Origin: an uncultured Clostridia bacterium
Lineage (GTDB): Bacteria > Bacillota > DTU025 > MWDF01
Length of the DNA: 64,000 nt
Assembly: GCA_964545975.1 (NCBI GenBank)
Contig: CAZJHY010000001.1
Span: 24,094 to 88,093 of the forward strand
Direction of reading: 5' to 3'
The position numbers and the translations under genes are program-made. Positions 8,953-28,640 of this stretch are shown one piece after another. Positions within the stretch are counted from its first letter, which is position 1. The number at the start of each line of letters is the position of its first letter. The notes beneath the pieces are model-generated. The model did no database searches. It saw only the letters and a list, made by a program, of their open reading frames with translations, and was not told the origin of the DNA.

Positions 8953-8980
8953 CGACATAACATTAACGGAGGTGCAACCA

Positions 8981-11065: not shown

Positions 11066-11713
11066 CTACTTGTTCTGCCCGTAAGTCCTGCCGAGGGTGG
11101 AGACCAATGCCTTCACCTGTTCGTCAGTTAGTGAGGATGCCCTGCCTATTTGCGAGGCGTGTATATAGCACGAGCACATCTTCTCCAGAAGCTCGCACCT
11201 TTCAAGGGCCTTCTCAGGCGTGTCAGCGACGCAGACTGACCCGTGATTGGACATTATTGCTGCATTCTTGCTTCCTAGCGCCTTCGCGACGTTCTTTGCT
11301 AGGTCGTCGCTTCCAGACATAGCATAATCCGCTACCTCTACAGCGCCTCCGAAGCTGAAAGCGCATATATCAGTTATGACCGGAAGAGGCATCCTTGCTA
11401 CGCCAAGGGCTATCGCCATGGGTGAATGAACATGAACGACGGCTTTAACCTCAGGCCTGGCAATGTAGATCTCCCTGTGCAGCATGCTTTCTACCGAGGG
11501 CTTAAGCTTTGATGAGGAATACAGTGTCGCCAGATCCAGCTCTACTATCTGCTCAGGGGAAAGCGCCTCATAAGGTATGCCGCTGGGGGTTATCAGCATC
11601 CCGGTTCCTGATTCATTCCTGCAGCTGACATTCCCTCCGGTGCCTATAGTAAGCCCCATTTCCATCATCTTGATGCCGGTCTGGATAATTCTTCTGTTAA
11701 GCTGCTCGTTCAT
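11066..11713 (-). CDS. class II aldolase/adducin family protein (L-fuculose-1-P aldolase / L-ribulose-5-P 4-epimerase-like)
   Basis: TGIKMMEMGLTIGTGGNVSCR N-terminal motif, HVHSPMAIA metal-His motif. Confidence 0.8.
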   Translation of the reverse strand: MNEQLNRRIIQTGIKMMEMGLTIGTGGNVSCRNESGTGMLITPSGIPYEALSPEQIVELDLATLYSSSKLKPSVESMLHREIYIARPEVKAVVHVHSPMAIALGVARMPLPVITDICAFSFGGAVEVADYAMSGSDDLAKNVAKALGSKNAAIMSNHGSVCVADTPEKALERCELLEKMCSCYIHASQIGRASSLTDEQVKALVSTLGRTYGQNK

Positions 11714-12151
11714 CTTTCTCCTCCATCTGTGGCTGTTGTATTGCCAGTACGAAATTATACAGTCAATTGCATATTAATATAGCACAATAACCTAACCAGG
11801 TGCGAAGGAGCACGCTGTTTTTAATGTGAGTCAAATACATTGCAAAAGCACAGCATAAAAGCGGTATTGCTTGCATCAGCAGGACACTGCTTCCTGAATA
11901 CTGGATTCAGCTTCCTGACGCTTGTCTAGGCAGTTTGATGTATATTTTCCTCCACATAAATGATATTCTATATTAAAGCGTTTCCGGATAGTTGTATATT
12001 ATTGGTACAATCTCCATTAGTATACAATCCAGAAAGGGGTGTTCGGCAGGCAGCTAACCACGGTAGTACCAAAATTACTAGCGACCAATCGCAAGTGGGA
12101 CAAGAAATCAATCTCCAGCGAGAAGTATAAGCAATTAGGGGAGGGAATCTT

Positions 12152-13162
12152 GTGAAGAGAACATTGTTAATCGCGGTTGTACTAGTCATGGCACTAACCA
12201 TCGTAACCGGCACTTTCGCAGCGACTACGCCTCTGTTGGTATCGGGCGGCGGTCTTAAGACGACCACTACCGTCAAGGCCAACTCGAAGTATCTCATCGC
12301 TTGCATCGTTAAGAACTCCACCAATCCTTACATGATCAAGCAGCTTGACGGCTTCAAAGCCGCCGGCGCATTCATGGGCTTCGACGCCGTCGCACTGGCT
12401 CCCGCCAAGGCCGACAACATCGAAGAGCAGGTCAAGATAATCGAAGACCTCATCCAGAAGGGCGTCAAGGGCCTCGTCATCCATCCTTCCGACTCCAACG
12501 GCATAGTCCCGATAGTCGAGAAGGCCATGTCGCTCGGCATCCCCGTGGTCGTAATAGGTACCCCGGCGAATACCGACAAGATATTCTTCCGCACCGGCAT
12601 GGACTATACCGACTCTGGCCGCAAGATCACCGAAGCTGCCATCCAGAAGATGGGCGGCAAGGGCAACGTCATAATACTTGAGGGCCCGCCCCAGGCGATC
12701 AACGCCAAGGAAAGGCTCAACGGCATGCTCGAAACTATAGCCAAGTACCCCGGCGTAAAGGTGCTTGACTCCCAGACCGCAAACTTCAACAGGCTCAACG
12801 CCCTCCAGGTCATGGAGAACCTCCTTCAGAAGCACAAGGACGTGCAGGGAGTCTTCGCGGCCAACGACGAGATGGCCCTCGGCGCGATCCAGGCTCTTGA
12901 AGCCGCCGGCAGGAAGAACGTGGTAGTCTCCGGCGTCGACGGAAGCAAGGACGCCTCGCAGGCGGTCCTCGAAGGCAGGCTCACAGTGACCTCGAATGCA
13001 GACCCCTATTCCAGCTCCTGGTGCGCCGCAGCATACATCGTGAAGTACTTGAACGACGGCACCATGCCGCCCTCCAAGTTCATCCCGTATCCCGCTGAAG
13101 TCGCCATCATCGACAAGAGCAACGTTCAGAACTACATCAACAACGACGCGTGGTGGAAGTAG
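12152..13162 (+). CDS. sugar ABC transporter substrate-binding protein (RbsB/ribose-type PBP family)
   Basis: signal peptide, type I PBP with FAANDEMALGA motif; GTG start after GGGGAGGGAA. Confidence 0.85.
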   Translation: MKRTLLIAVVLVMALTIVTGTFAATTPLLVSGGGLKTTTTVKANSKYLIACIVKNSTNPYMIKQLDGFKAAGAFMGFDAVALAPAKADNIEEQVKIIEDLIQKGVKGLVIHPSDSNGIVPIVEKAMSLGIPVVVIGTPANTDKIFFRTGMDYTDSGRKITEAAIQKMGGKGNVIILEGPPQAINAKERLNGMLETIAKYPGVKVLDSQTANFNRLNALQVMENLLQKHKDVQGVFAANDEMALGAIQALEAAGRKNVVVSGVDGSKDASQAVLEGRLTVTSNADPYSSSWCAAAYIVKYLNDGTMPPSKFIPYPAEVAIIDKSNVQNYINNDAWWK

Positions 13163-13180
13163 TCTCATAGAAGTCCTGCT

Positions 13181-13210
13181 ATGGAGCCCTGTCGCAAGAC
13201 GGGGCTCCAT
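13181..13210 (+). other. GC-rich intercistronic hairpin after SBP gene
   Basis: ATGGAGCCC (loop 12) GGGCTCCAT, 9 bp perfect stem. Confidence 0.5.
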
Positions 13211-13231
13211 GCACCCAAGGGGGCGTTATTT

Positions 13232-14752
13232 TTGGAGATAGTACCTATCCTCGAAGCGAGGAACATCAGCAAGGAGTTCCCGGGCGTAAAGGCGTTGGAT
13301 GAAGTATCCATACAGGTAAGGCCCGGCGAGGTCCATGTACTGATAGGAGAGAACGGGGCCGGAAAGAGCACGCTGTCCAAGATACTCATGGGAGTGTATA
13401 CCAGCGACAAGGGCGAGATCCTGTTCGATGGTAAGCCCGCCCACATTAGGAACCCTCATGACGCAAGGGCATTAGGCATATGCGGTGTCCATCAGGAGTT
13501 CATGCTTGTACCCTGGATGAACGTCGCACAGAACATCTTCATCAACAGAGAGCCCAGGATTTGGCCGGGGCTTCCCTTCATAGACCACAAGAAGATGCAC
13601 GAGGACAGCAGGAAGCTGCTTTCCTCCTTCAACGTGAACATCAACACCAAGCAGCCGGTGAAATACCTGGACACCGCGCTCCAGCAGATGGTGGAGATAG
13701 TAAAGGCGCTATCTACGAACCCCAAGGTCCTGATACTTGACGAACCGACTGCAGTCCTCACGGACAGGGAGGTCAACAGCCTCTTCGCCCATATAGAGGA
13801 GCTGAGAAGCCGAGGGGTTGCGATCATATACATATCGCACAGGCTTCCTGAGATCAGAAGGATAGGCGACAGGGTCACGGTCCTAAGAGACGGGAAGTAT
13901 GTAGCAACGGTTGACATCAAGGACACCCCCGACGAGGAGCTCATCAAGATGATGGTGGGCAGGAGCGTTTCGCAGCTTTATACCAGAAACCGCCAGGTTC
14001 CCGGGAAAGAGGCCCTGAGGCTTGAGAATTTCAGCGTGAAGGGCGGACCGCAGAATGTCGACCTGGTGCTGCACTACGGAGAGATCATTGGGCTTGCGGG
14101 CCTGATTGGTTCAGGGCGCACCGAGCTTGTCAGGGGCATCATGGGAATTGACCAGCAGACAGGCGGTTCCCTTTACATCGATGGCAACAAAGTCACGGTC
14201 GGAAGCCCTGACAAGGCGATAGGACTGGGGCTGGGGCTTCTGCCTGAGGACCGCAAGAGGTATGGCCTCGCCCTTAAGACGAACATCGCCTGGAATACCA
14301 TAATGGCGAGCCTCAAGCGGGAGTTCCCCAAGGGAGTAGTAAGGGAGCGCAAGGTGCGCGACATCGCCCAGGGCTATGTTAAGCAGCTGAAAATCGCCAC
14401 AGACTCGGTATCTAAGGTGGTGGGCTTCCTAAGCGGAGGCAACCAGCAGAAGGTTGTCGTCGCCAAGTGGATCAACACCAAGGCCAAGATCCTCATCTTC
14501 GACGAACCTACAAGGGGCATCGACGTGGGGGCCAAGGCAGAGGTGCACGCCCTCATGGACAAACTGGTGGCCGAAGGAAACGCGATCATAATGATTTCCT
14601 CCGACCTGCCGGAAGTCCTCGGGATGAGCGACCGCGTCTACACGATATTCCAGTGCCGTTCCATGGGGGACTGCTGCTTCCAGGAGGCGAACCAGCAGAG
14701 AATCGGCTCCCTTATGCTGGGAGTGGGGGTGAAGACAGATGCAAACCAGTAA
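13232..14752 (+). CDS. sugar ABC transporter ATP-binding protein with two NBDs (RbsA/MglA-like)
   Basis: two Walker A/signature sets (GENGAGKST; LSGGNQQK); TTG start at 13232 after AAGGGGG; the longer ORF from 13181 is rejected because it overlaps the hairpin. Confidence 0.8.
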   Translation: MEIVPILEARNISKEFPGVKALDEVSIQVRPGEVHVLIGENGAGKSTLSKILMGVYTSDKGEILFDGKPAHIRNPHDARALGICGVHQEFMLVPWMNVAQNIFINREPRIWPGLPFIDHKKMHEDSRKLLSSFNVNINTKQPVKYLDTALQQMVEIVKALSTNPKVLILDEPTAVLTDREVNSLFAHIEELRSRGVAIIYISHRLPEIRRIGDRVTVLRDGKYVATVDIKDTPDEELIKMMVGRSVSQLYTRNRQVPGKEALRLENFSVKGGPQNVDLVLHYGEIIGLAGLIGSGRTELVRGIMGIDQQTGGSLYIDGNKVTVGSPDKAIGLGLGLLPEDRKRYGLALKTNIAWNTIMASLKREFPKGVVRERKVRDIAQGYVKQLKIATDSVSKVVGFLSGGNQQKVVVAKWINTKAKILIFDEPTRGIDVGAKAEVHALMDKLVAEGNAIIMISSDLPEVLGMSDRVYTIFQCRSMGDCCFQEANQQRIGSLMLGVGVKTDANQ

Positions 14753-15704
14753 GCTCATGGGCTTTTTGAGGAAGGTCCCGCCGGCGACATACATCATACT
14801 GCTCATGATAGCCATATACGGCATCGCCGCGCCCGGCTTCTTCACCCTTGGAAACCTCGAGAACGTCGGAAACCAGGCGGCCCCCCTTCTCATCGTCGCC
14901 ATAGGTGTGACCATGGTCATCATGACGGAGGGTACAGACCTTTCGATCGGTTATGTGATGGGCATGGTCGGAGTCGTTGTATCGATTATGCTTAGGGCGA
15001 AAATCTGGATAGGCTGGGCGTTCCTTGCCGGCATCGCGGTAGGGGTGTTCTGCGGCTTCATAAACGGCGTCGCAGTCGCAAAGCTCAAGCTTCCTCCGTT
15101 CATTGCTACGCTTGGTACCGGAAACGTCATATTCGGAATAGGCCTCGTCATAACCGAAGGATACTCCATACAGGCACTTGATCCTGCGCTGCTTTTTCTG
15201 GCAAGCGGCAAGGTGTTCGGAATAAGCATGCCGATACTGATTGCCACGGTGGTCTTCGGGTTATGCTGGGTACTCATGAACTACACGCCGTTCGGGCGCA
15301 ACATAGTCTCTCTCGGAGGCAACTCCGAGGCGCTTAGAGGCGTTGGCCTTAACGTCGGGAAAGCCTCCATATCGGTATACATGATGTGTGGCTTCCTTGC
15401 GGCAATAGGAGGCCTCATAGTGGCGTCAAGGACAGGCTCAGGCTATTCGGCGGCTGCCATGGGATGGGAGTTCGACGCCATCGGAGCCAGTATAATCGGC
15501 GGTACATCCTTCGAGGAGGGCAATGGATCCATAAGCAGGACCGTAATTGGTGTCGCGCTCATATCGATACTCAGAAACGGCCTTAATGTCGTGGGCGTGC
15601 CGAACATGTACCAGTACGCGCTCATCGGCGCCATAGTGCTGACGGCCATAATCCTGGACGTTCGCTTCAGGCAGGCCGCGAAGGGAGGCGTCAAGAGAGT
15701 ATGA
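14739..15704 (+). CDS. sugar ABC transporter permease (RbsC family)
   Basis: multi-TM; overlaps ATPase stop. Confidence 0.8.
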   Translation: MQTSKLMGFLRKVPPATYIILLMIAIYGIAAPGFFTLGNLENVGNQAAPLLIVAIGVTMVIMTEGTDLSIGYVMGMVGVVVSIMLRAKIWIGWAFLAGIAVGVFCGFINGVAVAKLKLPPFIATLGTGNVIFGIGLVITEGYSIQALDPALLFLASGKVFGISMPILIATVVFGLCWVLMNYTPFGRNIVSLGGNSEALRGVGLNVGKASISVYMMCGFLAAIGGLIVASRTGSGYSAAAMGWEFDAIGASIIGGTSFEEGNGSISRTVIGVALISILRNGLNVVGVPNMYQYALIGAIVLTAIILDVRFRQAAKGGVKRV

Positions 15705-16696
15705 ACGAAGGTTCAAGGATGAAGGACACCCCCAAGGCGGTCGCAATCGTAAACGACAGGCTCAAGGCAAGGGAGGCCATAGCTCCCCTCTTCAGGCTCA
15801 CGTTCCTGATAGTCCTCATGATCGCACTTTCCATACTCAGCGAGGACTTCTTCACATGGAGCAACCTAATTAACGTTCTCAGGCAGTCGACTTTCCTGAT
15901 AGTAATCGGCCTCGGGCTCACAGGGGTGCTGCTTACCGGAGGCATCGACCTGTCCGTAGGCGGTGTGCTCGCATTCGTGGGCTGCGCGACTGGACAGATG
16001 ATGAGATCCGGCGTTCCGCTTTATCTTGCAGTGCCAATCGGTCTTCTAATCGGAGCGGGAGTCGGATGCTTCAACGGTTTCATGGTGGGGTACATCAAGC
16101 TTCCTCCGTTTGTGGCCACTTACGGTTCCAAGTGGATATCCGAGGGCATGGCGCTGCTTCTTATGCAGGGGCAGGTCATCTACGGCTTCCCGAGGGTGTA
16201 CCGCTGGATCGGCATCGGCTACATAGGACCCATACCAGTGCCCATCATAATTGCTGCCATCCTTGCGGTAATAATGAACTTCCTGTTCGTGAAGACCGTA
16301 TTCGGCAGGCAGGTATATGCACTGGGCGCCAACAAGGAAGCAGCATTCTACTCGGGCATCAAAGTCAAGAAGAACATCATGGTGGTATACACCCTTGCTG
16401 GCCTCATGGCGGGCATTGCCGGCCTTCTGATGCTTGCAAGGCTTGACGCCGCCGAGGTGAACATGGGAGAGGCCCTGCAGCTGCAGTCCCTCGCCGCGGT
16501 CATCATCGGGGGTGCATCCCTTCGCGGAGGCGAGGGCAGCATATTCGGCACGATAATTGGCGCCATAACCCTTACGCTGGTCGTAAACGGGCTTAACCTG
16601 CTTGGCGTGCGCTCTTTGTGGCACTCAGTGGTGCTCGGCGGCGTCATCCTGGCATCCGTGATAATGGACCTGCGCATGAAGAAGCTGGCGCAATAA
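15701..16696 (+). CDS. sugar ABC transporter permease (RbsC family, second copy)
   Basis: multi-TM paralog of preceding gene, ATGA overlap. Confidence 0.8.
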   Translation: MNEGSRMKDTPKAVAIVNDRLKAREAIAPLFRLTFLIVLMIALSILSEDFFTWSNLINVLRQSTFLIVIGLGLTGVLLTGGIDLSVGGVLAFVGCATGQMMRSGVPLYLAVPIGLLIGAGVGCFNGFMVGYIKLPPFVATYGSKWISEGMALLLMQGQVIYGFPRVYRWIGIGYIGPIPVPIIIAAILAVIMNFLFVKTVFGRQVYALGANKEAAFYSGIKVKKNIMVVYTLAGLMAGIAGLLMLARLDAAEVNMGEALQLQSLAAVIIGGASLRGGEGSIFGTIIGAITLTLVVNGLNLLGVRSLWHSVVLGGVILASVIMDLRMKKLAQ

Positions 16697-16727
16697 GGAT
16701 TAGCAGAAAGAAAAAGGAGGAACACCA

Positions 16728-17537
16728 ATGGCCAACCTTACGATCAGACCCATAAACACCGGTTACGCGGAAACCTACAAGAAGCAGTACCAGTACCATC
16801 ATTCTACCCACAAGTACCACAACGTCGACGACGGAAAGCTTCTTCTGCCCTGCATGGCATTCCTTATCGAGGGCGGAGACAAGCTCGTGCTGGTAGACAC
16901 CGGCATGTCCAACACCGAGATAGCCAACAAGTATCATCATCCGGGTTCGTACCAGCCTGACGGCTTTGCGATACATGAGCAGCTGGCGAAGCTGGGCATC
17001 AAGTGCGAGGACATCGACATTGTCATCTTCACGCACATGCACTGGGACCACATGCACAACATGGAGAAGTTCGTAAACGCCAGGTTCATCGCCCACAAGA
17101 AGGAATGGGAGTTCTGCCAGAACCCCATCCCGCTGTACTACAAATCATACGAGCATCCCAAGCTCGGCATAAAGGCTCCCTTCACTGGCCTTAAGATCGA
17201 GACCGTAGAGGGCGAGCAGGAGATAGTCCCCGGCATAAGGGTGTTCGAGAGCTTCGGGCATTCGCCGGGCCACATGTCCGTGGAAGTCGACTGCGAGGAC
17301 GGATCCTACATCCTCTGCGGCGATGCGGTATTCATCTACGACAACCTTAAGCCCGTGCCGGACATGTTCTATGAGATTACTCCCCCGGCCAGGTATGCCA
17401 ACATCGTCGAGTGCTGGAACAGCATAGTCGAGATGAAGCATAGGGCCAAGGAGCAGCGCTTCATACTGCCCTCCCATGAGCCTGAGATAGAGGAGCTCGC
17501 GAAGAAGTACGGAACTTTCCCGATACCCAAGAAGTAA
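16728..17537 (+). CDS. MBL-fold metallo-hydrolase (AiiA-like lactonase family)
   Basis: HxHxDH zinc motif in FTHMHWDHMHN; RBS AAAAGGAGG. Confidence 0.75.
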   Translation: MANLTIRPINTGYAETYKKQYQYHHSTHKYHNVDDGKLLLPCMAFLIEGGDKLVLVDTGMSNTEIANKYHHPGSYQPDGFAIHEQLAKLGIKCEDIDIVIFTHMHWDHMHNMEKFVNARFIAHKKEWEFCQNPIPLYYKSYEHPKLGIKAPFTGLKIETVEGEQEIVPGIRVFESFGHSPGHMSVEVDCEDGSYILCGDAVFIYDNLKPVPDMFYEITPPARYANIVECWNSIVEMKHRAKEQRFILPSHEPEIEELAKKYGTFPIPKK

Positions 17538-17619
17538 CATCACACCGATTGGGGGTGCGGCCGGGAGGCAGGTCCAAGGGGGCGCGGGCCTCCGAAGACA
17601 GCCAACCCGGCCTTGTCAT

Positions 17620-18843
17620 ATGAAGACTATCGCAGTGATAACCTCGCTGGACACGAAGGGGAAAGAGACCCTCTATATAAAGGATGCGATCGAGAGGTTC
17701 GGCTCGAAGGCTCTCATCATAGACGTAGGGGTCAAGGAGCCGCCATATTTCACGCCTGATATCGCAAGGCACGAGGTGGCCGCCGCCGCCGGCATCGACT
17801 GGGATACGGTGAAGGACAAGGAGAAAAGGGTGAGGATAAGCACCATGACCTCAGGCCTTGAGGTGCTTATACCCAAGCTATATGCCGAGGGGAAGCTTTC
17901 GGCCGTGTTCTCGATGGGAGGCCTTCAGAACACAACGATGGGAACATCGGCGATGAAGACCCTGCCGCTCGGGGTGCCTAAGCTCATGCTTTCCACGATG
18001 GCGTCCAGCAACAGGCCTTTCGGTCCGTTCGTGGGAACCAAGGACATGACCCTCATGCACTCGGTGGGCGACATCCTAGGGGTAAACCCCGTCACCAAGG
18101 CCGTGATGGATAACGCCGTCGGAGCCATCGTGGGGATGGCGGAGCACGCCGGAAACAGGGTGCAGAAAACTGACAGGATCCTTGTGGGTGCCACTATGCT
18201 CGGCGTAACGAACGACGGAGTGAGCCGCGCGGTATCCTACCTCGAGGAGGCAGGCTACGACGTGGTCACCTTCCATGCGAACGGTGCGGGAGGACCGGCC
18301 ATGGAGGAGCTCATAGGACAGGACACGATAGACGCCGCGATGGATCTTACGCTGCATGAGATAGACGCTGAATTCTTCGGGGGGCACTGTTCGGGGGCGA
18401 CCAACAGGCTCCTTATGGCCGCCGAGAAGGGGATACCCCAGGTTGTTTCGCTTGGTGCCTCCGACGTCATAGACTATGAGGTCGTGGACCTCGACAAGGT
18501 AAGGGAGTATGGAAGGCGCAAGTTCGTCTATCAGCACCCCACCATCCAGCACATAAAGCTCATAGAGGAAGAGGCGCACAAGGTCGGGACGGTAATCGGG
18601 GAGAGGCTCTCAAAGGCCAAGGGTCCCCTAACCCTCGTCATACCTAGGGGAGGCTTCCACCAGAGCAGCTACAAAGGCGGTCCCATATGGGATCCTGCCA
18701 TCGACGAGATAATCATAGGACACATACTAAGCAGGATTGCGCCTTCCACAAGGGTGGTAGAGACCGCAGCCCATATCAACGAGCCCGCCTTCAGCAGGGT
18801 GGCGGCCGATGAGATGATTAAGCTTCTGAAGGCCATGCGCTAA
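17620..18843 (+). CDS. UPF0261 (Tm-1-like N-terminal domain) family protein
   Basis: N-terminal MKTIAVITSLDTKGKE pattern and ~400 aa length typical of UPF0261; product by recollection of family only. Confidence 0.5.
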   Translation: MKTIAVITSLDTKGKETLYIKDAIERFGSKALIIDVGVKEPPYFTPDIARHEVAAAAGIDWDTVKDKEKRVRISTMTSGLEVLIPKLYAEGKLSAVFSMGGLQNTTMGTSAMKTLPLGVPKLMLSTMASSNRPFGPFVGTKDMTLMHSVGDILGVNPVTKAVMDNAVGAIVGMAEHAGNRVQKTDRILVGATMLGVTNDGVSRAVSYLEEAGYDVVTFHANGAGGPAMEELIGQDTIDAAMDLTLHEIDAEFFGGHCSGATNRLLMAAEKGIPQVVSLGASDVIDYEVVDLDKVREYGRRKFVYQHPTIQHIKLIEEEAHKVGTVIGERLSKAKGPLTLVIPRGGFHQSSYKGGPIWDPAIDEIIIGHILSRIAPSTRVVETAAHINEPAFSRVAADEMIKLLKAMR

Positions 18844-18875
18844 GCAGGGCCAGAAGCCTCACAAGGAGGATTCCG

Positions 18876-20132
18876 ATGTTCTACGGACTGCCTTTCGACA
18901 ACCCCGAGTCCATTTATGGCAGGGATTACGTTCTGGGCACCTATTTCGTGACCGGCGTCACAGGAGACGATGCGCTTAATAAGCTGGGCATGTTTGCAGT
19001 CGGCCAGTCCACCGGCACGTGGATGCCGGTGCCCGGCATAACCAGGCAGATGGTGGAGGATCATCAGGGAAGAGTCGTCGGATGCTATCCGGTGCCCGCC
19101 CAGGAGCCCGGCGCCTACGTTCTTAGGGTGGCGTTTCCCTACAGCAACATAGGCGGGTCCATCTCGATGCTGCTTACCACGCTTGCGGGAAACGACGCTT
19201 CGACTGCGCTGTGCGCGAAGCTCATAGACGTGGAGCTTGTCGGCAAGGCGAAGTCGGCCTTCCACGGTCCGCACTTCGGAATAGACGGGGTGAGGAAGCT
19301 CACGGGAGTCTACGACAGGCCCATAGTCATGAATATGATCAAGCCTTGCACGGGCTTTCCGGCTACGGCAGGGGCGGAGTTCTTCTACGCGTCCGGATCA
19401 GGCGGCGTAGACATAATAAAAGATGACGAGCTTATGGGCAACACCAGCTTCAATTCCGTCGCCGACAGGGTGAGGGAGTATGGTAAGGCTCAAGCGAGAA
19501 TCGGAGGAGAGAGGGGCAAGGCCCCTATATACCTTCCCAATGTGACCGACAGGCACGATAAAATGCGCGACAACATCAAGGCGGCGATAGACGGCGGAGC
19601 GAAGGGCGTCATGGTCAACTTCGTCTTCACCGGACTCGACAGCCTTGCCGCGCTTACATCGGAGTTCGGCGACAAGGTGATGTTCCTCGCTCATGCGGCA
19701 GGAGTTGGCGTCATGACCGGTTATCCGCAGGGCTTAAGCACCTCGCTTCTTCTAGGAAGGCTCGGAAGGCTGGCAGGCGCGGACGCGGTGGTCACCCTTT
19801 ATCCTCTCGGCATGGGAGGAGACGGCTTCCAGGAGCTTCAGATGACGGTGCAGAAGCACAGGCTGCCTCTGGGAGATGTCAAGCAAGCCTTGACCGTGGT
19901 CGGAGGAGGCGTCACGCCGCTTACCGTACCGTTTGCGGTGAAGAGCTTCGGCAAGGACATAATCATCGCCGTTGGCGGTGGCATCCAGGGCCACCCGGAC
20001 GGGGCGACGGCAGGCGCAAAGGCCATGATGGCTGCGGTGGATGCGACCATGAAGGGCGTAAGCCTGGAAGACGCGGTTAAGGACAGCCCGGAGCTCGGAA
20101 GGGCGATAACCAGATGGGGCAAGAAGGCTTAA
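18876..20132 (+). CDS. RuBisCO-like protein (form IV RuBisCO large-subunit homolog)
   Basis: GGVDIIKDDE aligns with RuBisCO GGLDFTKDDE (carbamylated Lys and Mg ligands retained); IKP (K175 equivalent) present; no small subunit or PRK nearby; RBS AAGGAGGA. Confidence 0.8.
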   Translation: MFYGLPFDNPESIYGRDYVLGTYFVTGVTGDDALNKLGMFAVGQSTGTWMPVPGITRQMVEDHQGRVVGCYPVPAQEPGAYVLRVAFPYSNIGGSISMLLTTLAGNDASTALCAKLIDVELVGKAKSAFHGPHFGIDGVRKLTGVYDRPIVMNMIKPCTGFPATAGAEFFYASGSGGVDIIKDDELMGNTSFNSVADRVREYGKAQARIGGERGKAPIYLPNVTDRHDKMRDNIKAAIDGGAKGVMVNFVFTGLDSLAALTSEFGDKVMFLAHAAGVGVMTGYPQGLSTSLLLGRLGRLAGADAVVTLYPLGMGGDGFQELQMTVQKHRLPLGDVKQALTVVGGGVTPLTVPFAVKSFGKDIIIAVGGGIQGHPDGATAGAKAMMAAVDATMKGVSLEDAVKDSPELGRAITRWGKKA

Positions 20133-20169
20133 GGGCCGCCCGAATGATGACCGTATGGAGGTAAAGCAG

Positions 20170-20793
20170 ATGGAAGATCTTATCATGAGCATAAAAAGGG
20201 ACGTGGAGCTCGCCTGCAGGAGGGCGTACACGAGGGGAATACAGACCGGAAGCGGCGGAAACGTCAGCGCAAGGATACCGGGCACGGACCATATGATAGT
20301 GAAGCCAAGCAAGGTGTCGCTCATCGAATGCGACCCCGAGACGCTTATCATAACCGACTTCGACGGAAACTTGGTGCAGGGCTCTCTTCCTCCTACGAGG
20401 GAGGCGGTGCTTCACGGCTGGCTGTATAAGAAGTTCGGCAAGATCGGAGCGGTGGTTCACACCCATTCGCCCTGGGCTATATCCTGGTCCTTCACCAGGA
20501 GGGACCTTCCCAATATTACCATGCATACTCAGCTTAAGCTGGGATGCCCCATCCCGGTCAGGTTCTTCTCCAGCCCCAAGGGGGTTCTGAAGGAGGAGAT
20601 GCCAGAAGTCTACGGCCTTTTCGAGAAGGAACCGAACCTCGCCGCCTTCATACTCGGTGCGCACGGTGTGGTCGCAGTCGGCGACAATATCATAGAGGCC
20701 GAGCACACGGCGGAGCTCATAGAGGAGACGGCACAGATAGCATACCTGCACGAGATGGGATTGAAGCTCGGGATGTTCCCCGAGGGCAGATAA
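20170..20793 (+). CDS. class II aldolase/adducin family protein
   Basis: GIQTGSGGNVSAR, HTHSPWAI motifs; start at ATG 20170 after GGAGGT. Confidence 0.8.
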   Translation: MEDLIMSIKRDVELACRRAYTRGIQTGSGGNVSARIPGTDHMIVKPSKVSLIECDPETLIITDFDGNLVQGSLPPTREAVLHGWLYKKFGKIGAVVHTHSPWAISWSFTRRDLPNITMHTQLKLGCPIPVRFFSSPKGVLKEEMPEVYGLFEKEPNLAAFILGAHGVVAVGDNIIEAEHTAELIEETAQIAYLHEMGLKLGMFPEGR

Positions 20794-20822
20794 GACGAAG
20801 ACAATCCGAACGGAGTGATCAT

Positions 20823-21284
20823 ATGTACAGGAAGATGGTAATAGGCTGCGACGAGGCGGCCTGTGAGCTGAAAAACGCCCTTATCGAGGTCCTTAAGAAG
20901 AAGGGAATTGAGTATGAGGACGTCGGAGTGCCGGATGCAAGCGACAAGACCTATTATCCCCTGGTGGCAGAGAAGGTGGCCGAGGCGATAATAGAAAGCG
21001 GCTATGAGAAGCACGGGATGCTCCTCTGCGGAACGGGCATCGGCATGGCCATATCCGCGAACAAGCACCCCGGGGTATTTGCCGCTGTATGCCACGACCA
21101 GTATTCTACCGAGAGGGCGAAGCTGAGCAACAACTGCAACGTCATCTGCATGGGGGCAAGGGTCATAGGGCCAGAGCTTGCCAAGAAGAACCTGGAGCAA
21201 TGGCTTGAGCTGACGTTCAAGGACGGCTCCTCGACCCCTAAGGTGGAGGCTGTGAAGGATATCGAGAAGAGGCATATGAAATGA
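20823..21284 (+). CDS. RpiB/LacA/LacB family sugar-phosphate isomerase (ribose-5-P isomerase B-like; possible tetrose-P isomerase)
   Basis: MVIGCDEAA...LLCGTGIGMAISANK with catalytic Cys-region; ~153 aa. Confidence 0.8.
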   Translation: MYRKMVIGCDEAACELKNALIEVLKKKGIEYEDVGVPDASDKTYYPLVAEKVAEAIIESGYEKHGMLLCGTGIGMAISANKHPGVFAAVCHDQYSTERAKLSNNCNVICMGARVIGPELAKKNLEQWLELTFKDGSSTPKVEAVKDIEKRHMK

Positions 21285-22075
21285 GGAGCCCGCTTCTTGT
21301 CGGCACGAACCTCAAGATGTACAAGGGCGTGAAGGAGACGCTGGAGTTCCTTTCGCGCCTTGCGGGAAACGTCAGCCACATAGGCAGCGAAGACATGACG
21401 CTCTTCGTCATACCCTCCTACCTTGCCCTTCATGCGGCATGCGGGTCTGATGCGCACAGCAGGATACTCCTTGGCGCGCAGAATCTGCACTGGGAGGACT
21501 CCGGGCAGTTCACCGGTGAGATATCCCCCATGATGCTCAAGGAGATAGGCATAGATATCGCTGAGATCGGCCACTCGGAACGAAGGCAGCTTTTCGGTGA
21601 GACGGACGTGACAGTGGGGCTTAAGGCCAAGGCAGCGCTCAGGCACGGCATGAGGGCCCTGGTATGCATAGGGGAGACCGCAGACGACAAGGCGTCGGGC
21701 ATTACCTATGAGAAGCTGAGGATGCAGGTGAAGGTGGCCTTAAAGGGGATTTCTGCGGATGAGCTCGAGGGGCTTTGGGTAGCATACGAGCCGGTATGGG
21801 CCATCGGGATCCACGGGGTCCCGGCTGAGCCCGGATACGCCGAGAAGAGCCACAGGATGATAAAAGACGTGCTGGAAGAGCTTTACCCTAATAAGGGCGC
21901 AGGCGTTCCCGTGCTGTACGGCGGAAGCGTCAACATGGAAAACGCCATGGAGCTCATCGTCCAGCCGAGCATAGACGGCTTGTTCATAGGAAGGACCGCT
22001 TGGGACGCGGACAGGTTCGCGTCGCTGATCAAGGATGTCCTCCCCTTGTGGAAGGCCAAGGCTGAGAGAGAATAG
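21281..22075 (+). CDS. triose-phosphate isomerase family protein (TpiA-like, divergent N-terminus)
   Basis: GHSERR, AYEPVWAIG (catalytic Glu), YGGSV; N-terminal GTNLKMYKG instead of canonical GNWKMNK. Confidence 0.8.
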   Translation: MRSPLLVGTNLKMYKGVKETLEFLSRLAGNVSHIGSEDMTLFVIPSYLALHAACGSDAHSRILLGAQNLHWEDSGQFTGEISPMMLKEIGIDIAEIGHSERRQLFGETDVTVGLKAKAALRHGMRALVCIGETADDKASGITYEKLRMQVKVALKGISADELEGLWVAYEPVWAIGIHGVPAEPGYAEKSHRMIKDVLEELYPNKGAGVPVLYGGSVNMENAMELIVQPSIDGLFIGRTAWDADRFASLIKDVLPLWKAKAERE

Positions 22076-22104
22076 GGCAAGGCTTACGAAGGCGGTGTGA
22101 TGCA

Positions 22105-22776
22105 ATGGCGGACATGGTCATGGAGGCGAAAAGGCAGTTAATAGAGATCGGAAGGCAGATAGCTGCCAAGGGACTTGTGATAGGACCCGGCGGAAATACC
22201 AGCTTAAGGGCAGGCGCCCTCATGGTGATATCCGCCAGCGGCTCTTCATTCGAGTGCTCCGACGAGAGCGACTACGTCGCGATAGACATAGAGACAGGAA
22301 AACAGGCCGACGGCGGCAAGAGGCCGTCTTCCGAAGTGCTGATGCACCTTGAGTGCTACAGGAGGCGCCCGGATGTAAACGCTGTAGTCCATACCCATCC
22401 GACGTGGTCGACATCTGTAGCAAGCTCGGGCACCAAGATGCCCCCGATGTTCCCGGATTACGTCGTGTTCGTGGGCAAGCCCGCGACCCTGGATTACGTG
22501 ATACCGACGACGAAGCTTCTGGCCGATGCCGTGGCCGAAGTCATAGGGGAGCATAATGTGGTGCTCATGAGCAATCACGGGGTGCTTGCCGTCGCAGGCG
22601 ACCTCAAGATGGCGCTATTAAGGGTGGAGCTGGCAGAGGAGAACGCAAGGATGCTCGTGATAGCAAACTCCCTCGGCAAGCCGCGATCCCTTACGGATGC
22701 CGAAGTCCAGGCGATATTTGACCTGGAGAGCGAGAAGTACAGGCAGAGGCTTCTGAAAAACGAGGGCGGGAAGTAG
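22105..22776 (+). CDS. class II aldolase/adducin family protein
   Basis: GLVIGPGGNTSLR, HTHPTWS motifs. Confidence 0.8.
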   Translation: MADMVMEAKRQLIEIGRQIAAKGLVIGPGGNTSLRAGALMVISASGSSFECSDESDYVAIDIETGKQADGGKRPSSEVLMHLECYRRRPDVNAVVHTHPTWSTSVASSGTKMPPMFPDYVVFVGKPATLDYVIPTTKLLADAVAEVIGEHNVVLMSNHGVLAVAGDLKMALLRVELAEENARMLVIANSLGKPRSLTDAEVQAIFDLESEKYRQRLLKNEGGK

Positions 22777-22798
22777 TCCTAAAAAGGAGGACGCACCA

Positions 22799-24271
22799 TT
22801 GTCCGACAGGCTTTTCATGGGGATAGACGTGGGCACGGGCGGAGCCAGGGTCATAGTCTGCGACGAGTACGGGTTGCCCCTGGCGGAAAGCTCGAGGCCG
22901 TTTGCCGCAGGTGCCGGCGCATCTGACATGCCCCAGGGCTGGCATCAGCAGTCGCCCGCAGCCTGGTGGGACGCGACTTCCGCATGTATAAGGCAGGTCA
23001 TGGGCTCACCCGGACTCGGCGGAAATCCTGGCAGGGTGTTCTCTGTTTCCGTCACATCCACATCAGGTACTGTGATCCCGCTTAGGGAGGATTGCGAACC
23101 GCTCTGGGATGCGGTCATGTACAACGACAGCAGGTCGTCCGCGCAGGCGGAAAGGGCGAACGAGGCGCTTAAGGAATTATGCGGGAAGCTCGCCTACAGG
23201 TTCGACACATCCTTCGGGCTTCCGAAGATGCTATGGTTCATGGACAGCAAGCCTGAGCTGTTCAGAAGGACCAGATTCTTCGTCCACGCTGGCGATTATA
23301 TTATCGGGAAGCTCTGCGGCTGCTTCGGTTTCACCGACTATTCCAACTCGCTGAAGTCTGGATACGACATCGATGAGCTGATATGGCCGAAGGAGATAGA
23401 GGAGAAACTGGGCGTCCCGGCGTCCAAACTGCCGGAAGTGCTCGCCCCGGGCACGGTAGTCGGGAAGGTCTGCGCCGCCTGCTCCGCAGAGACGGGCCTT
23501 CCGGAAAGCACCAACGTCGCGCTGGGCATGACGGACGGCTGCGCCTCGCAGATTGCATCGGGTGCCGCGTCCTTAGGCGACTGGAACACCACGATCGGCA
23601 CAACGCTTGTAATCAAGGGGGTCACCGAGAGGCTCCTCTTCGACCCGAAGGGAAGGATATACAGCCACAGGCATCCCGACGGGCACTGGATGCCAGGCGG
23701 GGCCAGCAACGTCGGCGGCGACTGCATAAGAAGCAACTTCCGCGACGATGAGCTGGATACGCTGAACGCGTCCGTGCGCCCTGAGAAGCCGACAGGCATG
23801 CTGGTGTACCCTCTGGAGAAGAAGGGCGAGAGGTTCCCGAACAGAGATCCTTTGGCAGAGGGGTTCATAATGGGAAGCCCATCAGGAAGGCCCGAGCTCT
23901 ATCAGGCCTACCTTGAGGGTGTTGCGCTGGTGGAGAAGATGTCATACGAGATGCTTCAGAGCTTGGGGGCGGCAATCGGTGACACGATCTTTGCGGCGGG
24001 AGGCGCCACGAAAAGCGAGCCATGGCTCAAGGTAAGGTCGAATATGCTCGACCGGCGCATTGCAGTCCCGGAGATTGCAGGAGGATTCATGGGAGCCGCC
24101 ATACTAGCAGCTTCCCTCTCCCATTGGGGCTCGCTCGGTGAGGCTGCCAAAAACATGGTAAAAATTTCCAAGACGATATGCCCGGACCCTGCCGCTGTCG
24201 ATGCCTATAAGGATAAGTACGGGCAGTTCATAAGAGAGATGGGAAGCAGGGGATATACCCTGGAGGGATGA
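22799..24271 (+). CDS. FGGY family carbohydrate kinase (xylulo-/ribulo-/erythritol-kinase-like)
   Basis: N-terminal GIDVGTGGARV, ~490 aa two-domain ASKHA kinase; TTG start after AAAGGAGG. Confidence 0.8.
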   Translation: MSDRLFMGIDVGTGGARVIVCDEYGLPLAESSRPFAAGAGASDMPQGWHQQSPAAWWDATSACIRQVMGSPGLGGNPGRVFSVSVTSTSGTVIPLREDCEPLWDAVMYNDSRSSAQAERANEALKELCGKLAYRFDTSFGLPKMLWFMDSKPELFRRTRFFVHAGDYIIGKLCGCFGFTDYSNSLKSGYDIDELIWPKEIEEKLGVPASKLPEVLAPGTVVGKVCAACSAETGLPESTNVALGMTDGCASQIASGAASLGDWNTTIGTTLVIKGVTERLLFDPKGRIYSHRHPDGHWMPGGASNVGGDCIRSNFRDDELDTLNASVRPEKPTGMLVYPLEKKGERFPNRDPLAEGFIMGSPSGRPELYQAYLEGVALVEKMSYEMLQSLGAAIGDTIFAAGGATKSEPWLKVRSNMLDRRIAVPEIAGGFMGAAILAASLSHWGSLGEAAKNMVKISKTICPDPAAVDAYKDKYGQFIREMGSRGYTLEG

Positions 24272-24275
24272 TGAT

Positions 24276-25673
24276 ATGAGCATTTACAAGGCCTGCGACA
24301 TAAGGGGAGTCTACCCTTCGTCGCTCGACGAGAAGACGTCATACGATATAGGAGCGGCTTTGGGGGAGATGCTCGGCCCTGTAAGCATGCTCGTCGCAGG
24401 CGACGTGAGGGTCAGCACGCCGCCTTTGAAGCAAAGCCTTATAAACGGCCTTGTGGACGCCGGATGCGAAGTAGTGGACATCGGCATGGCCCCGACCCCG
24501 GCCTTCTACTACGCGCTTCATAAGCTGGGCACCGAGTCGGGCGTGACGGTGACGGCATCCCATAATCCGGCCAAGTACAACGGCTTCAAGATAGCGCCGC
24601 ACGGGCAGCCCATGACTGAAGACGTGATGGACGACCTGAGGAAGATGGTCGAAGCTGGAGGATTCAAGCCATATGGGCAAGGGAGCGTAAGGAAGGCTGA
24701 GGTCATCGAGGATTACAAGAGATTCGTGCTTGATAAGATAGGAGAGCTAACGGGAACGAAGTGCAGCGCTCATGGTTCGAGTAATGCCCTCAAAGCCGTG
24801 GTGGACTGCGGCAACGGCTGCTACAGCACGATAGCCCCTGAAGTTCTAAGGCAAGCTGGCATCGCGGTTGAGGAGCTCTATTGCTGGGAGGATGGAACTT
24901 TCCCTAACAGGGAGCCAAACCCAGCTGTAGCTGAGAATCTCGAGGCTTTATGCGGCAAGGTCAGAGATACGGGGGCAGACCTTGGCATTGCCTTCGACGG
25001 GGACGGTGACAGGGTGGTCTTCGTGGACGAGCTGGGCAAAGTGGTCCCTAGCGACAATGCGATAGCACTTTTCGCCGGCTTCCTCCTTAAGAATCACCCC
25101 GGCTCGAAGGTGGTTTTCGACATCAAGTGCTCAAGCCTTGTGTCGGATTCGATCAAGGCGGCGGGCGGCATTCCAGTGATGGAGAAGTCAGGCCACGCTT
25201 ACATCAAGAACAACCTGCTGAGAAACGGCGCGGTTTTCGCAGGCGAGATCAGCGGGCACTTCTTCTTCCAGGTGCTCAAGGGGGATGACGGGCTGTTCGC
25301 GGCTCTTCTGATGGCCGAGATCATGATGTCGGAGGGCAGAAGCCTGGGGAAGATGGTGGAGTCGCAGCCGAAGTACTTCACTACAAGAGACTTCAGGATA
25401 CCGTTCTCGGGGAGCACGGCCGAGCTGTTCGGAAGGCTCAAAGCGCGCCTTGAGGCAAGCGGAGGCGCAAACCTGTCGTACCTGGACGGCATAAGGGCGG
25501 AGTTTTCTGAAGGCTGGGGGCTTATAAGGGCATCAGTCACTGAGCCACTGGTTACGCTGAGGTTCGAGGGGAAGTCGTTGGAGAGCCTTGATAGGATAAG
25601 GGATAGCTTCCTTGCTGCAGATGAGGACTTGCTTGATGCCGTAAGGGAGGTTTGGGCAAACCATCTTCCTTAG
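24276..25673 (+). CDS. phosphohexomutase (phosphomannomutase/phosphoglucomutase family)
   Basis: active-site TASHNPAKYNGFK phosphoserine loop. Confidence 0.85.
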   Translation: MSIYKACDIRGVYPSSLDEKTSYDIGAALGEMLGPVSMLVAGDVRVSTPPLKQSLINGLVDAGCEVVDIGMAPTPAFYYALHKLGTESGVTVTASHNPAKYNGFKIAPHGQPMTEDVMDDLRKMVEAGGFKPYGQGSVRKAEVIEDYKRFVLDKIGELTGTKCSAHGSSNALKAVVDCGNGCYSTIAPEVLRQAGIAVEELYCWEDGTFPNREPNPAVAENLEALCGKVRDTGADLGIAFDGDGDRVVFVDELGKVVPSDNAIALFAGFLLKNHPGSKVVFDIKCSSLVSDSIKAAGGIPVMEKSGHAYIKNNLLRNGAVFAGEISGHFFFQVLKGDDGLFAALLMAEIMMSEGRSLGKMVESQPKYFTTRDFRIPFSGSTAELFGRLKARLEASGGANLSYLDGIRAEFSEGWGLIRASVTEPLVTLRFEGKSLESLDRIRDSFLAADEDLLDAVREVWANHLP

Positions 25674-25685: not shown

Positions 25686-26372
25686 CTACTTCTCGGTGAA
25701 CTCCCTCATATAGCACTCGTATTTGCTGCAGTTCACCTGTATTCTCCTGTTTACGCTCCGGATGAATCCTTCGTTGGCAAGCTCGTTCATTAGCTTGCTT
25801 ACGGTCACCCTTGCAGCTCCTACGATGACTCCCAGCTCATAGTGCGTGTATCTCACCTTGAGCTCATACCAGCCGGGGTCGGCCTCGGCTTCCCTGTCGA
25901 CAGAGGAGCAGAGAAGCCTTGCTATCCTGTCCTTGCATGAGTTGAAGGTCAGGTTTTCAATCTCGAACCTGGTAATCAGGAGCTTCGTCGCCAGGCAACG
26001 GATGAATGCGTCCCTGAAGACAGCGCTGCTGTCCAGAAGCTGCCTCACCTTGTCCGGCGGTATCTTGCAAAGGACGACATCGGTCTCGGCTTGGGAGTAA
26101 AGTCCGGTCTTCCTTCCCAGGTAGAAGCCCATCTCACCGAAGAGCCAGCCCGGAGTGAGAGCATAGAGGACCTTTTCAAGCCCGTCCTCGTTCGCCATGA
26201 AATGCTTGGTCCTGCCCGACTTGATGTACAAGACGCCGCCGAAATCGCTCCCGGGCACAGAGAAGAGCGTCTTGGCAGGATAGGTAACCCTAATCGAGTT
26301 CTGCTCGATTATCTTCTCCAGTGCCTCGTTGTATGCATCGGGCATTAAGAGCCCCGTCTCCTCAAGGCGCAA
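25686..26372 (-). CDS. Crp/Fnr family transcriptional regulator
   Basis: cNMP-binding beta-roll then C-terminal HTH (HYELGVIVGAARVTVSKLMNELANEGFI). Confidence 0.8.
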   Translation of the reverse strand: MRLEETGLLMPDAYNEALEKIIEQNSIRVTYPAKTLFSVPGSDFGGVLYIKSGRTKHFMANEDGLEKVLYALTPGWLFGEMGFYLGRKTGLYSQAETDVVLCKIPPDKVRQLLDSSAVFRDAFIRCLATKLLITRFEIENLTFNSCKDRIARLLCSSVDREAEADPGWYELKVRYTHYELGVIVGAARVTVSKLMNELANEGFIRSVNRRIQVNCSKYECYMREFTEK

Positions 26373-27513: not shown

Positions 27514-27602
27514 GCTCGAAAGACCTGATCGAATAGAATTGGCAAGTTGCTTCGAAGCATAGTGGGAAGCAGATAAAAAGAAACGAAGGAGGAAGACCTG
27601 TC

Positions 27603-28577: not shown

Positions 28578-28594
28578 GCTTCCTTAAAGCAGCA

Positions 28595-28617
28595 GAGGGG
28601 CCGGAAACCGGCCCCTC
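28595..28617 (+). other. GC-rich intercistronic hairpin after SBP gene
   Basis: GAGGGGCCGG AAA CCGGCCCCTC, 10-bp perfect stem, no U-tail. Confidence 0.55.
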
Positions 28618-28640
28618 CAAGACTTATGGGGGTATATGCC

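Follow-up and report, generated by a model that had tools for sequence, protein, structure and literature searches.

Only a few reactions are known for RuBisCO-like proteins (RLPs), namely those of an enolase, a 1,3-isomerase, a decarboxylase, a transcarboxylase/hydrolase and an oxygenase. In the OiaX branch of the oxidative D-apiose pathway, reportedly described by Carter et al. in 2018 (Nat Chem Biol), an RLP is said to decarboxylate 3-oxo-isoapionate-4-phosphate, with LerI and then DerI acting after it. The DUF1537/OtnC tetronate pathways, reportedly described by Zhang et al. in 2016 (PNAS), are said to run from an acid sugar through a kinase and a class II aldolase-family decarboxylase to a ketose phosphate. 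The lower tetritol pathway of Brucella and Mycobacterium smegmatis is composed of EryC, EryH/LerI and EryI/DerI; EryC, a D-erythrulose-1-phosphate (D-erythrulose-1-P) 3-epimerase, feeds LerI with the L form, and LerI and DerI take L-erythrulose-1-P to D-erythrose-4-phosphate (E4P) (PMC10733421). Here we analyzed a 64,000-nucleotide stretch of DNA (the window, meaning the stretch at its full length) from an uncultured Clostridia bacterium (GenBank assembly GCA_964545975.1, contig CAZJHY010000001.1, positions 24,094 to 88,093), in which an RLP gene at 18876–20132 (+ strand; RuBisCO_large, PF00016) lies in a co-directional block of 13 genes together with those for a sugar importer, a lactonase-like hydrolase, a UPF0261 protein and two isomerases.

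The system in the window seems to work like the OiaX branch and the EryC–LerI–DerI module, yet it fails the membership tests for both. We tentatively propose, with slightly less than even confidence, that the operon takes up a small keto-sugar lactone or sugar acid, probably a C5 compound, and breaks it down in a redox-neutral way to E4P; the exit from L-erythrulose-1-P through D-erythrulose-4-P to E4P is the best-supported part of this model. As in the OiaX branch, there are a ribose-type ABC solute-binding protein (SBP), a lactonase, a kinase that would make a 4-phospho-3-oxo acid, and an RLP followed by a TIM-family LerI and an RpiB-family DerI, with E4P as the end product. Unlike in that branch, the RLP belongs to another clade, the kinase is a UPF0261 and not a DUF1537 protein, the lactonase has the metallo-beta-lactamase (MBL) fold, an extra conserved aldolase-II protein (AldB) is present, and the cluster contains neither an apiose dehydrogenase nor a PdxA-family oxidoisomerase, and hence no redox step. 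The likeness to the tetritol module is that a LerI-like TIM protein and RpiB occur together downstream of a kinase and that a step supplying L-erythrulose-1-P is needed; in addition, some relatives of the RLP locus carry a glycerol-3-phosphate-dehydrogenase-like gene in an EryB-like position. However, entry here is by a lactone or acid and not by a polyol, and the cluster has no AP_endonuc_2 homolog of EryC; the RLP holds that position, which by analogy would be a non-homologous replacement. An earlier reading of the sequence without database searches (the sequence-only reading) had stated that this neighbourhood is unlike the known RLP pathways. That holds insofar as it matches neither methionine salvage, nor the MTA-isoprenoid shunt, nor the DUF1537 apiose/tetronate routes, but the locus is better described as a variant of the OiaX/EryC–LerI–DerI logic. 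The overall logic, an RLP-dependent sugar-acid pathway feeding E4P, has precedent, and there is a real chance that the RLP reaction itself is new.

Family membership was judged by NCBIfam equivalog cut-offs, and the RLP scores under every curated one: 265.8 bits against a cut-off of 409 for the MtnW model NF007095, 220 against 513.6 for the second MtnW model TIGR03332, 207 against 497 for the type III RuBisCO model and 128 against 700 for the OiaX model NF042437. Its closest solved relatives, all at about one-third identity as estimated by eye, are 4nas, which is unassigned, MtnW of G. kaustophilus and of B. subtilis, and a type III RuBisCO from Pyrococcus (2cwx, 181 bits). Judged from its sequence, the protein is a member of a distinct, uncharacterised family. 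The sequence-only reading had named a place in a characterised clade such as MtnW, with methionine-salvage neighbours, as a possible refutation; the RLP instead lies outside the MtnW, OiaX and form III families, and its neighbours are of another kind. Homologs number in the hundreds and come almost entirely from metagenomes and metagenome-assembled genomes (MAGs) of uncultured Bacillota/Clostridia. JGI names many of them '2,3-diketo-5-methylthiopentyl-1-phosphate enolase', one NCBI MAG record reads 'transcriptional regulator', and others carry a generic RuBisCO domain name, so the public annotation of the family, being generic or wrong, is misleading.

The active site was examined in an alignment of 25 homologs and 47 metagenomic members. 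The family-invariant signature consists of T48/W49, N106-D107, K156-P-C158, K182/D184/E185, H273, G343-345 and G367-368. T48/W49, N106, K156 and H273 correspond to T65/W66, N123, K175 and H294 of RuBisCO, K182/D184/E185 to the carbamyl-K201/D203/E204 triad, G344/G345 to G380/G381 and G367/G368 to G403/G404. Other RuBisCO positions are changed in the family alignment: K177 is Cys158, H327 is Val, S379 is Gly, E60 is Gly43, and R295 is Ala in the window protein and Tyr, Ser or Thr in its relatives. No conserved Lys is found across the family at the K334 loop-6 position, and an invariant Gln44 occupies the place of S61 (register GQSTGTW/ESSTGTW). The alignment register was validated by L005, a true RuBisCO in the alignment, which has N, KPK, HR and SGG in the matching columns. 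By this pattern, the Mg2+/carbamate centre, the C1-phosphate site and the residues for enolisation are retained in the family, and the C5-phosphate site and the residues for carboxylation are gone. Of the enolisation apparatus of RuBisCO, more remains than in MtnW (N123, K175, H294 and the C1-phosphate site). Because the signature is identical whatever the genomic context, it suggests a single type of substrate, a CH2OP-C(=O)-C(OH) compound.

The same positions bear on the idea that the protein is a bona fide form III-like RuBisCO of a nucleoside/pentose-bisphosphate pathway, with the FGGY kinase, the mutase and RpiB supplying ribulose-1,5-bisphosphate. Its type III scores do come near its MtnW scores, N123 and H294 are kept, and the cluster includes a PGM-family mutase, RpiB and a kinase. 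However, the carboxylation set is broken family-wide at K177, R295, H327, K334 and S379, the type III cut-off is missed, no AMP phosphorylase, ribose-1,5-bisphosphate isomerase or PRK is present, and conservation with the RLP does not extend to FGGY and PGM; we find this explanation scarcely credible.

Could the RLP be an MtnW (2,3-diketo-5-methylthiopentyl-1-phosphate enolase) and the cluster a variant of methionine salvage? Its nearest relatives in NCBIfam and the PDB are of the MtnW type, the JGI labels say as much, class II aldolase-family proteins, the family of MtnB, are close by, and MtnW/YkrW, which with 4nas is closest in sequence, likewise has the Mg2+/carbamyl-Lys centre, one phosphate site and no carboxylation residues. 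In contrast, both MtnW cut-offs are missed by wide margins, and the catalytic Lys98 of MtnW (G. kaustophilus numbering) aligns with Asn106, which is Asn in 25/25 homologs and 47/47 metagenomic members. 'KPC' and 'GGG' stand where MtnW has 'K(G/A)x' and 'SAG', and the genomic context is wholly different, with a sugar ABC importer, a lactonase, a LerI-like protein and RpiB as neighbours. MtnK, MtnA, MtnX and MtnD were absent from the cluster and from the other window genes scanned. Because Lys98 is replaced by Asn and no mtn gene was found among the window genes scanned, methionine salvage was excluded, and we consider an MtnW assignment extremely unlikely.

The exit of the proposed pathway is formed by two adjacent isomerase genes. 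The TIM paralog (21281–22075, +; TIM domain in Pfam) has as its best PDB match 11ef, an 'L-erythrulose-1-phosphate isomerase', at 202 bits versus at most 179 for true triosephosphate isomerases (TPIs). It shares with LerI the loop-6 motif IGxxG(V/I)PA and the loop-8 motif GLFIGR(S/T)AW, where TPI has IGTGKxAT and LVGGASL; on this match and these motifs we regard it as LerI-like. The RpiB/LacAB-family protein (20823–21284, +; PF02502) passes the RpiB subfamily model NF004051 (159 bits against a cut-off of 135) and is predicted to be DerI-like, converting D-erythrulose-4-P to E4P. Its true start is most likely the ATG at 20823 behind a GGAG, rather than the start of the open reading frame (ORF) at 20544. 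The sequence-only reading had the two isomerases channel a tetrose or pentose phosphate into central metabolism; a tetrose phosphate agrees with these assignments.

A LerI-like paralog of 54% identity was also seen in a Blautia sp. contig (L093, 3757–8786), where it is divergent from genes for PdxA, a DUF1537 kinase, RpiB and a KdgT permease and no RLP is present. The locus probably encodes a C5 acid-sugar (apionate-like) route to E4P in a gut Firmicute, and it would show the same logic in known enzymes: an acid sugar, a kinase, a decarboxylating step, a tetrulose phosphate and E4P.

The isomerases also raise the possibility that the operon is the known oxidative D-apiose pathway itself, with the RLP as OiaX or OiaT acting on 3-oxo-isoapionate-4-phosphate. 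The triad of RLP, LerI-like protein and RpiB and the ribose-type SBP (117 bits to the apiose-binding 5ibq) match the OiaX branch as reported, and the Blautia locus combines the LerI-like paralog with PdxA, DUF1537 and RpiB. Both decarboxylase and transcarboxylase activities of RLPs are cited in PMC6302742. The score against the OiaX equivalog is nevertheless far below the cut-off, the kinase and the lactonase are of other families, and a dehydrogenase in the position of ApsD, a PdxA-family ApnO and a DUF1537 kinase (OiaK) are all missing from the window cluster and the annotated RLP loci. We therefore consider the known apiose pathway improbable.

We next consider how far this gene set is conserved. 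In the closest relative whose locus is complete (L002, RLP identity 82%), all 15 genes of the neighbourhood are found in unchanged order. The core order of SBP, ATPase, two permeases, MBL, UPF0261, RLP, RpiB, TIM and an AldB-type aldolase recurs in many loci at 38–61% RLP identity, for example L007, L009, L010, L013, L022, L026, L040, L061, L069, L075 and L095 from peat, fermentation and other metagenomes. Altogether, 12 or more independent loci from metagenomes or MAGs, with RLPs 38–82% identical, have this order, which provides the comparison of neighbourhoods that the sequence-only reading had called for. When all ORFs from 50 RLP loci of at least 6 kb were clustered, UPF0261 co-occurred with the RLP in 29, TIM and aldolase II in 24 each, RpiB in 22, the permeases in 20, MBL in 19, the ATPase in 18, and the SBP and a GntR/FCD regulator in 15 each. 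No paper linking an RLP to UPF0261, MBL, LerI or RpiB was found in full-text searches of the literature library, and to our knowledge none joins an RLP with UPF0261 or with this gene set.

Several variants of the context were observed. In a peat clade, a homolog of NAD-dependent glycerol-3-phosphate dehydrogenase follows AldB, and GntP/galactonate-type transporters or a LarA-like isomerase adjoin. Chloroflexota-type loci have FGGY-RLP-TIM-RpiB with an SDR protein, an inositol-monophosphatase-family protein, aminotransferases and a GntR/UTRA regulator, and have neither UPF0261 nor MBL. A variant with a DeoR regulator contains the RLP, Amidohydro_2, PEP_hydrolase, UPF0261, MBL and RpiB, and another has MBL, UPF0261, RLP and aldolase II together with a divergent SGL lactonase, a tautomerase and a ribose-type ABC system. 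In a phosphotransferase system (PTS) variant (L029, 3494–9807; L050; L086), Gat/ascorbate-type EIIA_2, IIB and EIIC-GAT occur with RpiB and/or TIM, the RLP, aldolase II and a HAD phosphatase, and a separate kinase is absent. L092 (3528–11275; also L027 and L036) has the order UTRA, MBL, UPF0261, URO-D, DeoC, UPF0261, URO-D, RLP and contains no RpiB, TIM or aldolase II, which suggests that the same RLP signature can be followed by another downstream chemistry. Aminotransferases belong to the context of the RLP relative in L088.

Two features persist through most of these contexts. A phosphorylating step, by UPF0261, FGGY or PTS, accompanies the RLP in most of them, and where UPF0261 is missing the RLP instead has an FGGY kinase or a Gat/ascorbate-type PTS beside it; the LerI-like/RpiB pair is likewise present in most. 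Lactonase-type hydrolases and proteins that sense or transport acids are frequent, and indicators of acid sugars in related loci include the GntR/FCD regulators, the GntP and galactonate-type transporters, the LarA-like isomerase, and Amidohydro_2 or the SGL lactonase.

The UPF0261 gene (17620–18843, +) lies directly upstream of the RLP and encodes both the N- and the C-terminal domain of its family (PF06792 and PF23189). The best PDB match of the protein is 9mpy ('UPF0261 domain-containing protein', 153 bits), followed by Tm-1. We take 9mpy to be the crystal of MarK E16K because position 16 of its chain is Lys; Lys13 of the window protein aligns with this residue. Residue 16 of MarK has been equated with K20 of Tm-1, which contacts the alpha-phosphate of ATP, and the activity of the family was first shown in 2025 for MarK, an ADP-forming, ATP-dependent kinase (PMC12624787). 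The window protein shares with MarK the two-domain fold family and the ATP-contact Lys, and by analogy it is predicted to be an ATP-dependent kinase, the conserved partner that makes the phosphorylated substrate of the RLP. MarK acts on the phenolic acetovanillone in an aromatic pathway, whereas the UPF0261 protein here stands in a carbohydrate/RLP context, and such a role would be a new substrate class for the family. The sequence-only reading had assigned phosphorylation to the FGGY kinase. This did not survive the comparison of loci, in which UPF0261 is the conserved partner and FGGY is confined to the window and three relatives (L002, L009 and L020).

UPF0261 was also seen beside the RLP together with its usual partner PF09370 (PEP hydrolase-like) in L043 and L064, and also in L042, L059, L062, L076 and L082. 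In L043 and L064 an Amidohydro_2 protein adjoins the RLP as well. Loci of the window type do not carry PF09370.

The importer is of the ribose-type CUT2 class, and its genes are those for the SBP (12152–13162, +; Peripla_BP_4, PF13407, 200 bits), an ABC ATPase with two nucleotide-binding domains (13181–14752, +; PF00005 in two stretches) and two BPD_transp_2 permeases (PF02653; 14739–15704 and 15701–16696, both +). The best PDB match of the SBP is the ribose-binding protein 2ioy (168 bits). The ribose contacts D89/R90 are replaced by G136/T137 and F15/F16 by Y60/M61, and ribose was ruled out as the ligand by this partial replacement. The SBP has a type I signal peptide (12152–12220) with predicted cleavage after TFA and no lipobox Cys; an SBP of this kind is unusual in a monoderm Firmicute and could be a sign of a diderm lineage or of anchoring in the membrane. 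An antisense ORF of 338 aa (12194–13210, −) overlaps the SBP gene and is slightly longer; we treated it as a non-coding shadow ORF, and it could mislead automatic gene callers.

The MBL-fold hydrolase (16728–17537, +; Lactamase_B, PF00753) appears gamma-lactonase-like, in agreement with the sequence-only reading. Its best NCBIfam matches are 4-pyridoxolactonase, AiiA and YtnP, all under cut-off, and its best PDB matches are AiiA lactonases at 68 bits and low identity.

UlaG has the MBL fold and UlaF belongs to the aldolase II family. The operon might thus be an ascorbate-like (Ula-type) pathway for an aci-reductone lactone such as L-ascorbate, erythorbate or the C5 D-erythroascorbate, in which the MBL protein takes the UlaG role, the RLP replaces the 3-keto-acid-phosphate decarboxylase UlaD and AldB takes the UlaF role. 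A redox-free route needs a ready-made keto- or enediol-lactone, the RLP relatives in L029, L050 and L086 adjoin a Gat/ascorbate PTS with RpiB and aldolase II, and a C5 analogue would yield a tetrulose phosphate after decarboxylation, which fits RpiB. On the other hand, the NCBIfam matches listed for the MBL protein are only lactonase and beta-lactamase models and none of the UlaG type, no UlaE and no OMPdecase or AP_endonuc_2 protein is found, and the Gat/Asc-type PTS occurs in distant variants only. A C6 substrate would lead to pentulose-5-phosphate and leave LerI and RpiB unexplained, and 3-keto-aldonate phosphates carry the phosphate away from the carbonyl, while the RLP keeps only the C1-phosphate site. 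Taken together, a Ula-type pathway seems to us to have a low probability.

Three class II aldolase paralogs (all PF00596) belong to the neighbourhood, namely the divergent AldA (11066–11713, −; 163 bits), AldB (20155–20793, +) and AldC (22105–22776, +). All have the Zn-binding His triad and the catalytic Glu. AldA and AldC carry a FucA-like C-terminal tail, whereas AldB is shorter and has none. The best NCBIfam matches of AldA are fuculose-phosphate aldolase and Ru5P-epimerase models, and those of AldB are PRK06557 (117 bits) and, second, OtnC (85 bits; cut-off 250), all under cut-off. AldB orthologs occur in most core loci, and it is the sole aldolase-II paralog conserved with the RLP; it is predicted from sequence to be a decarboxylase, a lyase or an epimerase. 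The other two paralogs are accessory. AldA, whose ortholog was found in L002 only, lies outside the conserved core, and AldC orthologs occur in L002 and L009 only. The order of acid sugar, kinase, class II aldolase-family decarboxylase and ketose phosphate is that of the DUF1537/OtnC pathways, but AldB scores far below the OtnC cut-off, the cluster has no DUF1537 protein and no dehydrogenase or isomerase steps of that kind, and the product would be a tetrulose phosphate and not DHAP.

FGGY (22799–24271, +; PF00370 and PF02782), the PGM/PMM-family phosphosugar mutase (24276–25673, +; PGM_PMM domains I–IV) and AldC form an accessory module confined to the window, L002 and L009, with a part of it also in L020. 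FGGY scores 194 bits with the XylB model (cut-off 380) and 123 with LsrK (cut-off 528), and the mutase 354 bits with an archaeal-type GlmM model (cut-off 439). The LsrK match, together with one of the SBP to LsrB, bears on whether this is a system for autoinducer-2 (AI-2; Lsr-like) or another diketo-pentose phosphate, in which the SBP would import 4,5-dihydroxy-2,3-pentanedione (DPD)/AI-2, FGGY would add a phosphate and the resulting diketone phosphate would be isomerised by the RLP. MtnW-type RLPs do act on 2,3-diketo phosphates, but both Lsr matches are weak and far under cut-off (44 bits against 384 for LsrB), neither LsrG nor LsrF is present, and FGGY is accessory while the conserved partners are UPF0261, MBL, the LerI-like protein and RpiB, which makes such a system very unlikely.

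Returning to the proposed route to E4P, the steps can be drawn as follows. The CUT2 ABC system would import the compound, the AiiA-like MBL hydrolase would open a gamma-lactone, and UPF0261, given the activity of its family, would phosphorylate the product with ATP and so create the CH2OP-C(=O)-C(OH) motif. The RLP would bind this motif through the C1-phosphate site and the Mg2+/carbamyl-Lys centre and lead through a 2,3-enediolate to L-erythrulose-1-P. The LerI-like TIM paralog would convert this to D-erythrulose-4-P, which is the best-supported step, and the DerI-like RpiB would form E4P for the pentose-phosphate pathway. AldB would do a complementary step, either the decarboxylation of a free 3-keto acid or an epimerase/lyase reaction, and AldC, AldA, FGGY and PGM may serve as an accessory branch for a related free ketose. 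Because the core contains no oxidoreductase, the substrate must arrive as a keto- or enediol-lactone or acid; aci-reductones of the ascorbate type, for example C5 D-erythroascorbate, are candidates by speculation.

Two reactions of the RLP are considered within this route. In an OiaX-like reaction it would decarboxylate a 3-oxo-acid 4-phosphate, the only beta-keto-acid class with a phosphate next to the carbonyl, as the C1-phosphate site requires. In an EryC-like reaction it would epimerise D- to L-erythrulose-1-P at C3, AldB would decarboxylate the 3-keto acid left after ring opening, and UPF0261 would act as a 1-kinase on the resulting tetrulose. The former has direct precedent and the latter employs every core enzyme; the latter also fits the peat-clade and Chloroflexota-type variants, which resemble an ery operon without EryC. 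RuBisCO itself converts ribulose-1,5-bisphosphate to xylulose-1,5-bisphosphate in a side reaction through mis-protonation, and epimerisation by the RLP would be a truncated version of it that has become a main function. The precedent for the decarboxylation of a 3-oxo-acid phosphate by an RLP is taken from the statements of two papers that cite Carter et al. (PMC6302742, PMC10176493). A more specific and more doubtful proposal is that the RLP is a dedicated ketose-1-phosphate 3-epimerase (D- to L-erythrulose-1-P) that replaces EryC non-homologously, with the invariant Cys158, which stands where RuBisCO has K177, donating the second proton, that UPF0261 is the first carbohydrate/keto-acid kinase of its family, and that they jointly form a widespread new route of anaerobic Bacillota from keto-sugar lactones to E4P; we judge this full combination to be rather unlikely.

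Several observations weigh against the proposed route. The TIM paralog marginally passes the generic TPI equivalog model (295.8 against a cut-off of 293), and RpiB scores below the DerI equivalog NF051858 (150.9 against 240). The roles of MBL, AldB and UPF0261 are drawn by family-level analogy at 25–35% identity. The sequence fits either the RLP or AldB as the breaker of the C–C bond. With no oxidoreductase in the core, import must occur at the level of a keto acid or aci-reductone, for which natural sources are limited, and the substrate is assigned as a class only (lactone/sugar acid), with no single compound named. The URO-D/DeoC context of L092 and the aminotransferase context of L088 indicate that the RLP family may have more than one substrate, and no cultured or studied organism turned up among the family members.

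The 13-gene block on the + strand (12152–25673) is a real operon, and its composition is not accidental. All 15 genes of the sequence-only reading were recovered by ORF listing and by scans against Pfam with the coordinates and domains given there, and its view of a single co-directional sugar-catabolic unit centred on the RLP is borne out by the arrangement of the genes and by the retained synteny. All junctions within the block are overlaps or gaps of at most 82 bp. The 'many 4-bp overlaps' described before do exist but are overstated: two were found (permease 1/permease 2 and RpiB/TIM), the ATPase and permease 1 genes overlap by 14 bp, and the remaining junctions are gaps of 4–82 bp. A terminator scan gave no + strand terminator-like site between the genes of the block; its only + strand match there, at 23280 within FGGY, is weak, and the total of matches did not exceed the shuffled expectation.

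The 438-bp AT-rich region between AldA and the SBP gene (11714–12151), a divergent control region, carries TGTATA/TATACA half-sites in several copies, and a GGAGGG ribosome-binding site precedes the GTG start codon of the SBP gene. Several blocks of this region, the repeats among them, are kept in the AldA–SBP intergenic region of L002 (2724–3223), and the repeats are a candidate operator. Neither the leader nor any other part of the window gave a riboswitch match in Rfam. A Crp/Fnr-family regulator gene (25686–26372, −; PF00027 and PF13545) is convergent with the operon, and its tie to the operon is uncertain: an ortholog was found in L002 only, and elsewhere GntR/FCD (15/50), DeoR or GntR/UTRA regulators occur instead. 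The GntR/FCD gene adjoins the RLP in those 15 other loci, and none is adjacent in the window.

Other genes of the window were noted as well. A fifth class II aldolase-family gene (34967–35758, +; 263 aa) lies between an FAD amine-oxidase-like gene (32887–34758) and an MFS transporter gene (35857–37152); aldolase-II paralogs are unusually abundant in this genome segment. Two dihydrodipicolinate synthase (DHDPS)-family genes flank the RLP operon at 8972–9868 and within 26599–30506, where a TAXI-type TRAP system (NMT1_3 SBP and fused DctM) comes after the downstream gene. Farther downstream is a long co-directional block (40483–53095, +), whose scanned genes encode a D-2-hydroxyacid dehydrogenase, a LarA-like (nickel-pincer) racemase homolog, an HMGL-like lyase/synthase, a branched-chain-type ABC SBP and permease, an acetate kinase and a UxaA/GarD-type dehydratase; it may be another organic-acid pathway.

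Each of the known RLP reactions has informed how RuBisCO chemistry evolved, and the family described here is abundant in metagenomes and routinely mis-annotated. Once assigned, its reaction would add a new function to the RLPs. The assignment would also place the large UPF0261 family in carbohydrate metabolism for the first time, supply new parts, such as a source of L-erythrulose-1-P, for synthetic erythrulose-monophosphate cycles, and reveal an unrecognised carbon source for the anaerobic Bacillota of soil, peat and fermentation.

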